From Methanomassiliicoccales archaeon (GTDB taxonomy: Archaea; Thermoplasmatota; Thermoplasmata; Methanomassiliicoccales; UBA472): 64,000 nucleotides of DNA. The DNA is taken from assembly GCA_040768245.1 (NCBI GenBank), contig JAXGNA010000004.1:42684-106683 (forward strand), read 5' to 3'. The number at the start of each line of letters is the position of its first letter. Position 1 is the first letter of the stretch. The notes under the pieces are model-generated. The model had not been told where the DNA came from and did not search any database. It worked only from the letters and a program-made list of their open reading frames with translations. Of the stretch, positions 34,708 to 47,105 are shown in pieces. The position numbers and the translations under genes are program-made.

Positions 34708-37698
<2,991 letters not shown>

Positions 37699-41777: not shown

Positions 41778-44459
41778 ATGACCGGTTCGGAGTTCGACCT
41801 CGCCTTCTTCCAGGAGAAGGGTTTCATGCGCAAGCAATGCCCCAAGTGCCAGAGGCACTTCTGGAGCCTGGGCGACTGGCCCACTTGCGGAGAGCCGCCT
41901 TGCGAGGAGTACACCTTCATCGGCAACTCCCCCATGAACCGGAAGCTCAGCCTGCACGAGATGCGCGAGGCGTACCTGGGATTCTTCGAGGATAACGGGC
42001 ATGGCCGGGTGAAAAGATACCCGATCGTGGCCCGGTGGAGGGACGATGTGTTCTTCACCCAGGCCTCCATCTACGACTTTCAGCCCTGGGTGCTGAACGG
42101 GGTGATCGAGCCGCCCTTCAACCCCCTGACCATCTCGCAGACCTGCGTCCGCTTCAACGACATCGATAACGTCGGAAAGACCGGCAGGCACTTCACCTTC
42201 TTCGAGATGTGCGCCCATCACGCCTTCAACAAGAAGGACGGCAAGTTCATCTATTTCAAGGACCGGACGGTGGAGCTCTGCCATCGCTTCTTCACCGAGC
42301 GCCTGGGGACGGACCCGGGCAAGATGCGTTACATAGAGGAGTGGTGGGAGGGCGGCGGGAACGCCGGACCCTGCGTGGAGGTCATCCTGGACGGGGTGGA
42401 GGTCGCTACGCTCGTCTTCATGATGTACCGTGATACGCCCGACGGACGGAAGCCCATGGACATGACCGTGGTGGACACTGGTTACGGTCTGGAGCGCATG
42501 ACCTGGGTGTCCCAGGGGGTGTCCTCCGCCTACGAGGCGGTGTTCGGACCGGTGGTGGAGTGGCTCAAGGACCTTTCCAAGGTGGAACCGGACCAGAGGG
42601 TCCTCACCGAGTACTCCAAGGTCGCTGGGGCCACCAACATGAGGACCGCCGCGGACGTGCGCCGCATCAGGGAGACCACCGCCGAGAGGATCGGCATCAG
42701 CTATGAGGAGCTGATGAGGACCATCGCCCCCCTGGAGGACATCTATGTGGTTTGCGACCACTCCCGCGCGCTAATGCTCATGCTGAACGACGGCGTGGTG
42801 CCCTCGAACGTCCGGGAGGGTTACTTCGCCCGGATGCTGGTGCGCCGCGCGCTTCGTTCCATCCGCTCCCTGAACCTGGACATCAGGTTATCGGAGGCGG
42901 TGGGAAGGCAGATCGACCACTTCCAGGACATATTCCCGGAGCTGAAGGAGAATCGCCAGGACATCCTCAACCTGGTCGAGGTCGAGGAGGAGCGTTACTT
43001 TGAGACCCTGGGAAGGGGAAAGCAGCTGGTCGGCCGGCTGGTCAAGGACCTCAAGAAGGGCGAGAAGCTGCCCAACGAGAAGCTCATCGAGCTTTACGAT
43101 TCCCACGGACTGAACCCGGAGATCGCCCAGGAGTTCGCGCCCGGACAGATAGATGTCCCGGACAACTTCTACATGCAGGTGGCCGCCCGGCACGAGAAGC
43201 CCGAGGCGGAGGTGGCGGAGGCCAAGGAACGCCCGGAGAAGATGCCCGAGACGCGCATGCTCTACTACGAGGACCCGGAGATGGTGGAGTTCGAGGGCAC
43301 CGTCATCGCCGAGATAGACGGAGGCATCGTCCTGGACCAGAGCGCCTTCTACCCGGAGGGCGGAGGCCAGGAATGGGACCTCGGCATACTGGACGGTAAG
43401 AGGGTCTGCCGGGTCATCAAGATCAAGACCACCATAGTGCACTTCGTGGAGGGCGAGAACCCCAGGATAGGCGCCAAGGTGAAAGGCTCTATCGACCTGG
43501 AGCGCCGCCAGCAGCTGATGCGCCACCACACCGCAGCGCACCTGATCAACGGGGTCGCTCGTAACTTGTTCGGCAACCACGTATGGCAGGCCGGAGCCCA
43601 CAAGGCCGTGGACCAGGCCCGCCTGGACATAACCCACTTCGAGAACCTGAGCACCGAGCAGCGGGACATGCTGGAGAGAGAGGTGAACAGAGTGGTGCTG
43701 CAGGACCGCCCCATCAGCATACAGTTCATGCAGAGGGACGAGGCTGAAAGATCGCACGGCTACCGGCTCTACCAGGGCGGTGCGGTACCGGGTAAGATCA
43801 TCCGGGTGGTCGAGGTCAAGGGACTGGACGCCGAGGCCTGCGGAGGCCTGCACTGCTCCCATACCGGAATGGTCGGTCCCGTTCGCATCACTCGCACCAA
43901 GCGCATCCAGGACGGGATCGTACGTGTGGAATACACCGCCGGCATGGCGGCCGTCTCCGGCATGCAGTCCGACAAGCGACTGGTGGAGAGCCTTGGCGAT
44001 TCCCTTAACGTTCCTGGGGAGAAGCTGCCTGAGGCGGTGGTCAAGCTTCAGGACGACCTGCGCGAGCAGCGCAAGAGCATAGAGCACCTCTCCTCGGTCA
44101 TCAACGACATGAGCGTGAAAGGCCTGGTCTCGGAGGCCCCCAAGGCTGGCGAGGCCCGTGTGGTGATCCACGAGGCGCTCCCCGGAGAGGACCCCGAGGA
44201 GATGTCCAAGCAGCTGGCCTCCATGCCCTGCACCGTGGCCGTCATCGGCGTCCCCGGGGACAAGGCCAAACTGCTGGTGGCCTGCTCTCCGGACGTCAGG
44301 ATGGACTGCCGCAAGGCCCTGAAAGGCATCATGTCCTACATGGGCGGCGGCGGGGGCGGTAAGCCGGACTACGCTCAGGGAGGCGGTGGGGACCCGACGC
44401 GTCTGAAGGAGGCCTTGTCCAAAGCTTATGACGTCATCTGCCGGGAGATCGGCGCCTGA
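41778..44459 (+). CDS. alaS: Alanyl-tRNA synthetase (archaeal)
   Basis: VARWRDDVFFT, VDTGYGLER, RHHTAAH and CGGLH editing motifs, GGGGGGKPDYAQGGG. Confidence 0.96.
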   Translation: MTGSEFDLAFFQEKGFMRKQCPKCQRHFWSLGDWPTCGEPPCEEYTFIGNSPMNRKLSLHEMREAYLGFFEDNGHGRVKRYPIVARWRDDVFFTQASIYDFQPWVLNGVIEPPFNPLTISQTCVRFNDIDNVGKTGRHFTFFEMCAHHAFNKKDGKFIYFKDRTVELCHRFFTERLGTDPGKMRYIEEWWEGGGNAGPCVEVILDGVEVATLVFMMYRDTPDGRKPMDMTVVDTGYGLERMTWVSQGVSSAYEAVFGPVVEWLKDLSKVEPDQRVLTEYSKVAGATNMRTAADVRRIRETTAERIGISYEELMRTIAPLEDIYVVCDHSRALMLMLNDGVVPSNVREGYFARMLVRRALRSIRSLNLDIRLSEAVGRQIDHFQDIFPELKENRQDILNLVEVEEERYFETLGRGKQLVGRLVKDLKKGEKLPNEKLIELYDSHGLNPEIAQEFAPGQIDVPDNFYMQVAARHEKPEAEVAEAKERPEKMPETRMLYYEDPEMVEFEGTVIAEIDGGIVLDQSAFYPEGGGQEWDLGILDGKRVCRVIKIKTTIVHFVEGENPRIGAKVKGSIDLERRQQLMRHHTAAHLINGVARNLFGNHVWQAGAHKAVDQARLDITHFENLSTEQRDMLEREVNRVVLQDRPISIQFMQRDEAERSHGYRLYQGGAVPGKIIRVVEVKGLDAEACGGLHCSHTGMVGPVRITRTKRIQDGIVRVEYTAGMAAVSGMQSDKRLVESLGDSLNVPGEKLPEAVVKLQDDLREQRKSIEHLSSVINDMSVKGLVSEAPKAGEARVVIHEALPGEDPEEMSKQLASMPCTVAVIGVPGDKAKLLVACSPDVRMDCRKALKGIMSYMGGGGGGKPDYAQGGGGDPTRLKEALSKAYDVICREIGA

Positions 44460-44528
44460 AACCTCTTCCAAATCACCCTTTTCATTGCAGAATACTTATA
44501 TACAGGCTCAAGCTTGGCATGTCCGACA

Positions 44529-44658
44529 GAATCGATGCTGTTGAGGGAGCCCTTCATGAGAGGGGCTTGTTCCCGGACCGGTAGCCCTATCCGGAGATGG
44601 GAACTGCAAACCGTGGCCTTCGTCGCGGGGCGTACTTCGTGAGGGCGAGATTCGATTC
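44529..44658 (+). ncRNA. Structured 5' leader RNA of rps13 operon (candidate r-leader)
   Basis: Closing helix GAATCGA/TCGATTC enclosing four hairpins, downstream of the TTATATA box near 44496-44502. Confidence 0.55.
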
Positions 44659-44681
44659 GCGATCGTCAGCGAGGGATACTC

Positions 44682-45185
44682 TTGGCTGAAGCGAAGAAGA
44701 CAACTAAGACTGAAGAGAAGGACGACTTCCGGTACATTGTCCGCATAGTCAACACTGACATTGACGGTAACAAGCCCACCGTGGTCGGCCTGCAGAGCAT
44801 AAAAGGCGTGGGAAAGAGGGTTGCTGAGGTCGTCGTCCGCAAGGCCGGCGTCGACCGCTCGGTCAAGATCGGCTCCCTGGACGAGGCGGCCACCGACGAG
44901 CTGGCCAGGCTCGTGACCACCTACTCTGAGTACGCCCCCAACTGGGCCATCAACCGGCAGGCGGACTACGAGACCGGCGAGGACCAGCACATCGTCAGCA
45001 CCGACCTGGACATCGTGCTCAAGGACGACATCAACCGCTTGAAGATGATCAGATGCTACCGCGGAGTGCGCCATGAGTCCGGACACAAGGTCCGGGGCCA
45101 GCGCACCAGGTCCAACGGCAGGAAGGGTCTGACCCTGGGCGTTTCCAAGAACAAGAACCAGCCCGCCCCTAAGAAGGAGGCCTGA
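44682..45185 (+). CDS. rps13: 30S ribosomal protein S13 (uS13)
   Basis: FRYIVRI, IKGVG, YRGVRHESGHKVRGQRTRSNGR. Confidence 0.96.
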   Translation: MAEAKKTTKTEEKDDFRYIVRIVNTDIDGNKPTVVGLQSIKGVGKRVAEVVVRKAGVDRSVKIGSLDEAATDELARLVTTYSEYAPNWAINRQADYETGEDQHIVSTDLDIVLKDDINRLKMIRCYRGVRHESGHKVRGQRTRSNGRKGLTLGVSKNKNQPAPKKEA

Positions 45186-45187
45186 AC

Positions 45188-45874
45188 ATGGGTGATCCAA
45201 AGTTCCCGAGAAGGAGCTTCGACACGCCCTCCCATCCCTGGCAGGGCGAGCGCATAAAGGAGGAGGCCCTGCTGGTCAAGCAGTACGGCCTGAAGAGCAA
45301 GAAGGAGCTGTGGAAGGCCAAGACCATCCTCAGGAACCTGCGCAAGCAGTCCCGTGACCTCCAGGCCAGACTGAGGACCGGCGAGCACCAGGCCAAGATG
45401 GAGACCGAGAACCTGCTGCGCAAGTGCGCCAGGATCGGCCTGCTGCCCATGGAGGGTACCAGGTTGGACGATGTTCTGGGACTTTCCGACATCGCCCTGC
45501 TGGAGCGCCGCCTGCAGACCGTGGTCTACAACCGTGGACTGGCGTCCACCGTCGGACAGGCCAGGCAGTTCATCGTGCATGGGCATGTGTGCATCGACGA
45601 CCAGAAGGTCACCATACCCGGGTACATCGTCACCCGCGAGGACGAGGAGAAGATCGTGCTCAACCCGAGGTCCCCCATCGCTGACGAGCTGCACCCGCTG
45701 AAGCAGGCCCAGAAGGAGGCTGCTGCGGCGAAGGCCCGCCACGAGGAGGCCGCGGAGATGAAGAAGGACCTGGGCAAGAAGAAGTTCGTGAAGCATGTGC
45801 CCAAGGATGTTGAGGCGGCGGTACAGGACGTCGAGGACGTCCCGGCCGAGCTGCCGACCGAGGAGGTGAACTGA
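45188..45874 (+). CDS. rps4: 30S ribosomal protein S4 (uS4) with charged C-terminal extension
   Basis: MGDPKFPR...[34 protein letters not shown]. Confidence 0.96.
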
Positions 45875-46257
45875 TGGGCAAGTGGGGAATCGCGAACGTT
45901 TTCGCCAGCTACAACAACATCATCATCACCTTGACCGACGTCACCGGTGCTGAGACCATAACCAAGTGCACCGGCGGAATGGTGGTCAAGGCGGCCAAGG
46001 ACGAGTCCTCTCCCTACGCGGCCATGAGGGCCGCGGAGAAGGTGGCCGAGATCGCCAAGGAGAAGGGGATAGAGGGTATCCACGTCAAGGTGCGCGCACC
46101 CGGTGGAAACCGCTCCACCTCCCCCGGTCCGGGCGCTCAGGCGGCCATCAGGGCCCTGGCCCGCGCTGGACTGAGGATCGGACGCATCGAGGATGTCACC
46201 CCTATCCCGCATGACGGCACCAAGAAGAAGGGCGGGCGCCGGGGCAGAAGGGTGTAA
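45874..46257 (+). CDS. rps11: 30S ribosomal protein S11 (uS11)
   Basis: [39 protein letters not shown]. Confidence 0.97.
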
Positions 46258-46268
46258 AGAGGCGCTTT

Positions 46269-47105
46269 ATGCACATAAAGATGCTAGAGGAGATGGAGAC
46301 CAGGGCCAAGTTCCTGGTCACCGACGCCAGTCCGGAGAAGGTCAACGCCCTGCGCAGGGCGCTGATCATGGACGTGCCCAAGTTGGCCATCGACGACGTG
46401 GAGTTCCACCTCGGTTCCTCCGTCGATGCCGAGGGCAACGAGTACGAGAGCATCAGCCCGGTGTTCGACGAGATCGTCGCTCACCGCCTGGGCCTTGTGC
46501 CTATCCCGACCGACCTGGAGCTCTTCGGCTTCCGGGACCAGTGCTCCTGCGGCGGCGAGGGCTGCCCGAGCTGCACCATCTACTACTCCCTGGAGAAGAG
46601 GGGGCCGTGCGAGGTGTACTCCGGTGACCTGAGCTGCCTGGGCGACGCCAAGTTCCAGCCCAAGGACTCGCTCATCCCGATCGTCAGGCTGGGCGAGCGC
46701 CAGGGCATATTGGCCTACGCCATCGCCGAGCTGGGCACCGGCCGCAAGCACGCCAAGTGGCAGCCGACCCACGGTGTAGGATACAAGTACTTCCCCACCG
46801 TGACCATCGACCAGTCCAAGTGCGACAACGGCGGCACCTGCATCAAGGTCTGCCCGAAGGAGGTCATGAAGTTCAAGGACCAGAAGGTGCAGGTGGTGGA
46901 CAACGACGCCTGCGTCCTGTGCGAGGAATGCGTCAGGGTCTGCCGCACTGGTGCCATCAAGGTGAAGTGGTCCGAGAACAAGTTCATCTTCGAGTTCGAG
47001 ACCGACGGGTCCCTGAGCGCGAGGGTGGCCCTGACCAAGGCCCTGGAATCGCTGGAGAAGACCTTCGACGAGTTCAGGGAGAAGGTCGCTTCCCTGGAAG
47101 GCTGA
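46269..47105 (+). CDS. rpoD: RNA polymerase subunit D (Rpo3) with ferredoxin-like insert
   Basis: NALRR...DVPKLAI, DEIVAHRLGLVP, GRKHAKW, CVLCEECVRVC. Confidence 0.94.
   Translation: MHIKMLEEMETRAKFLVTDASPEKVNALRRALIMDVPKLAIDDVEFHLGSSVDAEGNEYESISPVFDEIVAHRLGLVPIPTDLELFGFRDQCSCGGEGCPSCTIYYSLEKRGPCEVYSGDLSCLGDAKFQPKDSLIPIVRLGERQGILAYAIAELGTGRKHAKWQPTHGVGYKYFPTVTIDQSKCDNGGTCIKVCPKEVMKFKDQKVQVVDNDACVLCEECVRVCRTGAIKVKWSENKFIFEFETDGSLSARVALTKALESLEKTFDEFREKVASLEG

Follow-up and report, generated by a model that had tools for sequence, protein, structure and literature searches.

Among the closest described counterparts is the leader of the Escherichia coli alpha operon. It resembles the archaeal locus considered here in that it heads an rps13-led operon with uS4, uS11 and an RNA polymerase subunit and is pseudoknotted; via this pseudoknot uS4 represses the operon (PMC10931766, accessible part). 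The bacterial pseudoknot includes the ribosome-binding site, whereas the conserved core of the archaeal leader, a four-way junction for which Rfam offers no match, stops 24-36 nt short of the SD. A mechanistic precedent for such an arrangement is the mycobacterial rpsO leader, where uS15 represses via a pseudoknot that lies upstream of the initiation site and does not cover it. It differs from the archaeal element in its protein, its simpler fold and its U-G/C-G rRNA motif (same part of PMC10931766).

S4 r-leaders have been predicted in Clostridia, Fusobacteriales, Bacteroidia and Flavobacteria, in addition to the Firmicutes S4 leader (PMC7247131, accessible part). Like the archaeal element, they are lineage-restricted, covarying structures before the same genes, and most of them do without rRNA mimicry. 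Unlike them, the archaeal element is larger and does not have the GUAA mimic present in the motifs of Firmicutes and Fusobacteriales, and their models do not match it. Outside bacteria, autoregulation is reported for uS4 orthologues in yeast and flies and for S14/uS11 in yeast; for S4 orthologues the accessible text of PMC3315480 speaks of bacteria “and possibly archaea”, with reference to work on Halobacterium (Sano et al. 1999).

In archaea, few cis-regulatory RNAs are known (PMC7247131, same part). Among the archaeal r-leaders, L1 and L7Ae have been tested, while L4-Archaeoglobi, eL15, S15-Halobacteria and S15-Methanomicrobia are predictions, as far as the accessible sources go. They are likewise structured 5' UTRs of r-protein genes, but operon and fold differ from the case at rps13. 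The archaeal motifs in the accessible part of PMC7247131 are L4, eL15 and two S15, none for S13-S4-S11 or Thermoplasmata; the portion of its supplements searched yields no match to Methanomassiliicocc- or Thermoplasmat-, and the portion searched of the PMC8040213 supplement no relevant row. The element thus apparently is undescribed: the literature searched, a scope that most subscription papers fall outside, holds no account of it. We consider it a real structured leader that is restricted to one family; its most likely identity is that of an r-leader, with a putative ligand.

The locus and its transcript

The window, i.e., the whole stretch of DNA analysed, comprises 64,000 nucleotides from a Methanomassiliicoccales archaeon. 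The leader region is flanked by alaS (41778-44459) upstream and by rps13-rps4-rps11-rpoD downstream; matches to family models (Table 1) agree with the initial annotation in identifying the products of the latter as uS13, uS4, uS11 and RpoD. Where a TATA box had been noted, at about 44496-44502, TTATATA is indeed read, and the weak TTG start is found at 44682. In thirteen genomes of the genus with a detected TATA box, the spacing that corresponds to the inferred leader is 156-159 nt. In 39 short promoters chosen for a spacing of TATA+29, this distance falls on the same RCUCC-type start. A scan of the locus for bacterial promoters and terminators gave no match. A coding leader was rejected: in-frame upstream readings differ between genomes and are not kept.

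A few neighbouring features may be mentioned. The start of rps13 is TTG throughout the leader-carrying family and in most loci of families f2-f6, and ATG in family f7 and genus g13. In many relatives uS13 carries a long N-terminal extension rich in Lys and Glu. The 23S (window 34740-37645) and 16S (G000:C4:117631-119098) rRNA genes lie on the same contig, about 37 kb apart and not in one operon.

Several studies have yielded RNA assemblies in which rps13 is contiguous with the 3' part of the leader; one such contig begins at 44583 and is 2541 nt long. Such contigs document presence in RNA libraries and carry no information on start, strand or level. In 8/8 runs their starts fall within 44580-44588, and the first variable bases of P4 (44610-18) follow some 30 nt later; one run of unknown type likewise breaks at 44580-44588. 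These starts fit a branching of the assembly graph at the invariant arm; the missing RNA cover over 44477-44579 was not counted as evidence.

Table 1. Features of the leader and its operon, with the loci of the sister-family leader (window positions unless loci are named)
Feature	Position or loci	Strand	Remarks
TATA box	44496..44502	+	TTATATA; A-rich, BRE-like bases immediately 5'; same place relative to the element in relatives
5' leader, 157 nt (inferred)	44525..44681	+	start site inferred as TATA+29
P0, 5' hairpin	44525..44542	+	44525-29/44538-42; 5 pairs in 20/21 cores of the genus type
Long-range helix (P1 of the initial annotation)	44529..44658	+	44529-35 with 44652-58; genus-specific long-range pairing
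P1 of the core	44543..44638	+	44543-46 (GAGG) with 44635-38 (CUUC); closes a perfect four-way junction
P2	44547..44568	+	9-bp hairpin; sequence varies, length almost constant
P3, invariant arm	44569..44604	+	6 bp, 3x4 internal loop, 4 bp, 9-nt loop
P4	44605..44634	+	3-bp base (44605-07/44632-34), variable internal loop, 6-7-bp hairpin (44611-17/44622-28)
Pseudoknot, 5' strand (predicted)	44584..44588	+	in the loop of P3
Pseudoknot, 3' strand (predicted)	44642..44646	+	3-4 nt past P1; takes bases of the earlier P5
SD-like GAGGG (44671-75) and TTG start	44666..44689	+	weak local hairpin (predicted)
rps13 (uS13)	44682..45185	+	TIGR03629
rps4 (uS4)	45188..45874	+	TIGR01018; 2 nt past the rps13 stop
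rps11 (uS11)	45874..46257	+	TIGR03628; start shares one base with the rps4 stop
rpoD	46269..47105	+	NF001988; last gene of the cluster; next long ORF on the opposite strand
f7 leader loci (alignment A2)	L017, L024-L030, L091-L108, L110		upstream of rps13

Distribution of the element

The core of about 104 nt (44543-44646) occurs in a single copy per genome and always 5' of rps13. Within one Methanomassiliicoccales family a covariance model recovers it from 30 of 45 genomes; the carriers belong to five of the eight genera, and the same 30 genomes also built the model. Besides these strong matches at rps13, the 45 genomes yielded one weak match (E 0.36). Genera g3, g5 and g6 of the family are devoid of matches (0/13 genomes), and the two misses within carrier genera are genomes 55-59% complete, in which rps13 is missing as well. 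Elsewhere in the class, 0/149 other Thermoplasmata carry the core, the matches among the 151 genomes searched being the source genome and one congener. Within the order, rps13 was detected in 144/149 genomes. A DNA search with the leader in 259 genomes gave matches to the whole of it or the greater part in 15/15 genomes of the genus, and three other genera contributed 11 genomes that matched by P3 alone; the fifth carrier genus was recognised by reading upstream regions. A pattern search with P3 yielded 20 metagenome stretches and, among 185,579 species genomes, 25 stretches. All 50 pattern instances examined (30 from genomes, 20 from metagenomes) lie 5' of rps13 on the same strand, and the element always sits between a TATA box and rps13.

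Fold and covariation of the core

Forty distinct cores of 103-107 nt can be aligned nearly without gaps. From this alignment RNAalifold, unprompted, derives a four-way junction with zero unpaired junction bases and the helices P1-P4. The complementarity noted in the initial annotation for P2 (44547-68), P3 (44569-604) and P4 (44611-28) holds at precisely these coordinates, and all three are kept in the conserved fold. The five-helix junction into which they had been assembled was not confirmed: the conserved junction is four-way and closed by a GAGG/CUUC helix absent from the earlier proposal. Its P5 is better taken as a strand of the pseudoknot; as a hairpin it has 3 pairs only, two of them G-U in the source genus, displays no two-sided change and competes with the core P1. 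The internal loop of P3 is predicted to contain tandem G.A pairs and one bulged A.

Folding of the single sequence does not outdo chance. Its z is -1.26, with 20/200 shuffles equally stable, and the folding energy is -61.4 kcal/mol for the + strand vs -47 kcal/mol for the - strand. The lone-sequence fold being ordinary, the case for structure rests on relatives. Within the genus (15 genomes) identity amounts to 1.00 in P3, 0.98 in P0, 0.95 in the tail and 0.76-0.78 in P2 and P4; third codon positions of rps13, the reference, are 0.70 identical. Over the 40 cores, 97.3% of the paired cells are indeed paired, against 38-50% in controls with slid partners, and 19/32 pairs display compensatory, i.e., two-sided changes. 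None of 500 shuffles reached the observed value on four of five measures; on the fifth, further pair types, 165/500 did. Two-sided changes affect all 9 pairs of P2 and, across genera, two pairs of P3. In the core P1 an A-U pair has become G-C in 18/40 cores, which is one event on the tree (E 0.17).

The strand is also evident. The cells of the five helices comprise 932 Watson-Crick pairs, 90 G-U, 3 A-C and 15 others. G-U pairs had been noted earlier as favouring the + strand; with G-U so far above A-C, it is the RNA of the + strand on which selection acts.

A tree-aware covariation test, our own implementation after R-scape and not R-scape itself, was more reserved. Within the proposed set 9/37 pairs reach E<0.05, and three P2 pairs rank first, yet six of these nine do not stand out from unpaired columns that mark lineages; corrected for all 5151 column pairs, no pair is significant (best 0.137). 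The changes in P1 and P3 trace to one or two lineage events, and P1 and the pseudoknot fall short of significance. Columns of the core that differ between genus groups do so as complementary pairs, which lends support to P1 and P3. Covariation in relatives, whose absence would have spoken against the element, is therefore present, firmest for P2 and as single events for P1 and P3. Judged from these comparisons, the structured RNA is real, though its fold differs somewhat from the one first drawn.

Pseudoknot and flanks

A pseudoknot between 44584-88 and 44642-46, which are complementary, is plausible. Four of its pairs are invariant in 40/40 cores; the fifth is G-C in 22 cores and C-G in 8, and the remaining 10 show a C.A mismatch, so that the pseudoknot is supported by a single compensatory event (tree-aware test: E 0.75). 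The linker measures 3 nt in the source genus, which has the longest P3 loop, and 4 nt in the other carriers.

The 5' hairpin P0 is invariant and without covariation, and a hairpin of differing sequence sits at the same place in all five genera. Its loop contains a self-complementary hexamer (44531-44536), invariant within the genus, which could permit loop-loop dimers. The long-range helix that the initial annotation had drawn as P1 is complementary as stated (7 pairs in 20/21 cores of the genus type), but it is invariant, does not covary and is without counterpart in the four remaining genera. Of the 19 cores not of this type, 18 offer a comparable complement of at most 5 nt and one offers 7 nt; the place of the helix is taken by a local hairpin after the pseudoknot strand. 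On the sequence, this long-range pairing is a possible one.

The structure had also been said to end just before the SD. It does end upstream, the core by 24 nt and the long-range helix by about 12 nt, and leaves the SD untouched; across 9 leaders the distance from core to SD is 24-36 nt. Modelling places the closed junction 1.8-9.6 kcal/mol above the free ensemble, the energy of the pseudoknot being left out, and predicts that the core P1 is seldom formed in that ensemble (genus means 0-0.18). The closed junction thus appears marginal, and tertiary contacts, Mg2+ or a protein are likely needed to close it. The alternative partners of the 3' strand of the core P1 vary between genera. Accessibility of the ribosome-binding site differs by at most 0.04 per genus between the closed and the free state, i.e., no conserved switch was detected there.

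A probable ribosomal-protein leader

Probably, although by no means certainly, the four-way-junction leader with its predicted pseudoknot is a ribosomal-protein feedback element. As is usual for r-leaders, it always lies directly 5' of an r-protein gene on the same strand and has a covarying conserved structure. An invariant arm next to variable arms of fixed length looks, by sequence, like a binding surface carried by a scaffold. That a sister family has another, unrelated structured leader ahead of this operon is counted in favour of this reading; short leaders without the core in three genera of the leader-carrying family and in most other sampled families of the order are counted against it. 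The initial annotation had arrived at a feedback element, too. That idea remains the best supported one, while the likeness to the 16S binding site of S4, which it had seen in five helices, is gone.

The ligand may be uS4, ranked first because of precedent alone; S4 is what the prior-ligand rule would suggest, and new r-leaders mostly have a narrow distribution and no mimicry (PMC7247131, accessible part). Mimicry of rRNA was not detected here either by primary sequence and by eye: the longest shared word is 11 nt, reached by 5/100 shuffles, and lies in a variable arm. In Halobacterium, Sano et al. reportedly proposed a pseudoknot-like S4 site in 1999. The protein uS11 binds the k-turn of h23 in 16S rRNA. 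The internal loop of P3 resembles, when compared by eye, the non-canonical stem of this k-turn, but has a bulge of 1 nt; as the ligand, uS11 ranks second with a rather low probability, and uS13 is a highly unlikely candidate.

Mechanistically, surplus protein of the operon would bind to the invariant face made up of P3 and the pseudoknot and close the marginal junction together with the pseudoknot. The compact complex, 24-36 nt upstream, would hinder or trap the loading of 30S at a weak site (TTG, SD in a hairpin). Repression would be passed on to rps4 and rps11 by translational coupling, their starts being separated from the preceding genes by a 2-nt gap and a 1-nt overlap, respectively. Repression would be lifted once newly made 16S rRNA titrates the protein off the leader. 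With a 104-nt substrate and 40 natural variants, autoregulation by an archaeal uS4 becomes amenable to testing; the element also raises the question of how, in archaea, a structure that leaves the SD uncovered can bring about repression of an operon.

Other readings of the element

The leader could be a cis element read by a factor from outside the operon, be it L7Ae, another RNA-binding protein, or a small molecule or an ion in the manner of a riboswitch, which would tie the operon to the state of growth; we regard this as unlikely, albeit worth keeping in mind. A four-way junction with an invariant internal loop and a pseudoknot is elaborate for an r-leader, and such elaborate folds are typical of aptamers. 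A metabolite sensor, however, would often recur, while the element is single-copy and found at the rps13 operon only; the Rfam riboswitch models do not match, and an expression platform was not detected. For L7Ae in particular, the loop of P3 offers the tandem G.A plus G.U/G.G signature of the non-canonical stem of a k-turn. The tandem G.A/A.G lies by a canonical stem, its GGA/AGAK loop is found in 40/40 cores, and the geometry is predicted. L7Ae does regulate archaeal 5' UTRs, but the standard k-turn has a 3-nt bulge, where P3 has 1 nt (PMC5539422, accessible part). Less probable still is a constitutive structure that, without any feedback, stabilises the 5' end of the mRNA or aids recruitment of ribosomes to the weak TTG. 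The 5' hairpin of all five genera, the lack of a predicted switch and the weak start in the carrier family would suit it, yet short-leader relatives start at the same TTG without the element, and a stabiliser has no need of 36 invariant bases in one arm.

That an independent small RNA is cut from the operon transcript and acts in trans is very improbable. The fold is compact, closed and highly conserved, tRNAs lie at this position in other archaea, and a tRNA-Leu lies upstream in 6 sister-family loci. The leader itself, as already claimed in the initial annotation, is not a tRNA: ARAGORN and RF00005 find none, and all four tRNA-Ser types are encoded elsewhere in the genome, as is RNase P RNA. 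Guide-like complementarity to rRNA extends over at most 9 nt, the chance level. Moreover, the element never occurs away from rps13, and RNA contigs extend from P3 into this gene. Finally, the dyad of P3 might work as a DNA operator just past the promoter and not as RNA. It is near-palindromic and invariant, and g6 has a P3-like stretch upstream of its TATA box; the one-sided changes (G-U 90 vs A-C 3) and the covariation of P1, P2 and P4 as nested helices make this exceedingly unlikely. The feedback leader thus remains the reading that we prefer.

No gathering-level match to the leader came out of the Rfam check that the initial annotation had called for, families of alpha-operon and S4 leaders, riboswitches and snoRNAs included; with E allowed up to 10, one 11-nt chance match appeared (E 6). 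Across the window Rfam matches are limited to 23S rRNA and one tRNA-Ala, and on 20 relative loci to tRNAs and chance matches. RNase P RNA and SRP RNA were rejected as identities; the SRP model has no match in the source genome, which is 81% complete.

The sister family and a conceivable origin

In family f7 a different multi-helix leader of 89-130 nt precedes rps13 in 27/30 loci, with 10/19 pairs compensatory (alignment A2); it has no Rfam match among the loci tested. It shares with the core the operon, the order, a multi-helix junction and an internal loop starting with GA, but its closing helix touches the SD and a pseudoknot was not seen. Homology was not detectable: the core model reaches a best E of 0.49 on 80 loci, and the f7 model, on 45 loci, one of 0.74, off the element. 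In the f7 genomes L017, L099, L102, L104, L106 and L110 the rps13 promoter has a tRNA-Leu(CAA) upstream of it. Read by eye, the leaders are short, at no more than about 85 nt, in most other sampled families of the order, in g3, g5 and g6 and in the 20 other Thermoplasmata sampled, of which 0/20 has a tRNA at the position of the rps13 leader. Sister-family leader and short-leader relatives are natural controls, by which the origin of RNA-protein regulatory pairs becomes testable.

How might such a leader have arisen? A profile of 39 short promoters, with the TATA left out, was run on 13 long leaders. In 9/13 it lands on the 3' strand of P3, the P4 loop and the 3' strand of P1; two g4 leaders are significant (0/200 shuffles), three are weak (10-19/200) and the rest are not significant. 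P3-like DNA 5' of short promoters was found in 6/49 loci at no more than 6/300 shuffles, consistently in g6 only (2, 3, 4 and 18 of 300 shuffles for the stretch upstream of TATA). Both tests were designed after the likeness had been noticed, and the operon tree leaves the monophyly of the long-leader genera unsettled (support 0.23). That the 3' half of the core is the reused old rps13 promoter is, from the sequences, suggestive only. In a fuller scenario, which we consider somewhat unlikely, the family gained a new upstream promoter, the old promoter with its BRE, TATA region and start site, together with the spacer preceding it, became a pseudoknotted four-way junction binding uS4 or uS11, and the sister family evolved its own, unrelated four-armed leader independently. 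If true, this would be the first archaeal uS4/uS11 feedback RNA and a traceable birth of an r-leader from promoter DNA.

Some observations on short-leader relatives deserve mention in their own right. In g6 (L020, L022, L050, L051) the P3-like stretch between the alaS stop and TATA is conserved and might fold into a small pseudoknot, in which L022 shows one apparent compensatory change from C-G to U-A. In g5 (L023, L046-L049) the conserved alaS-rps13 spacer of 97 nt holds several possible hairpins upstream of TATA. At the short-leader loci of f1, f5 and f6 the 22 bases from TATA to the inferred start are nearly identical across the three families, which is unusual for a promoter spacer; they are possibly the DNA site of a regulator. 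Many rps13 leaders of Thermoplasmata (L155-L174 and the short-leader loci) start with a pyrimidine-rich, CUCC-like sequence complementary to their own SD.
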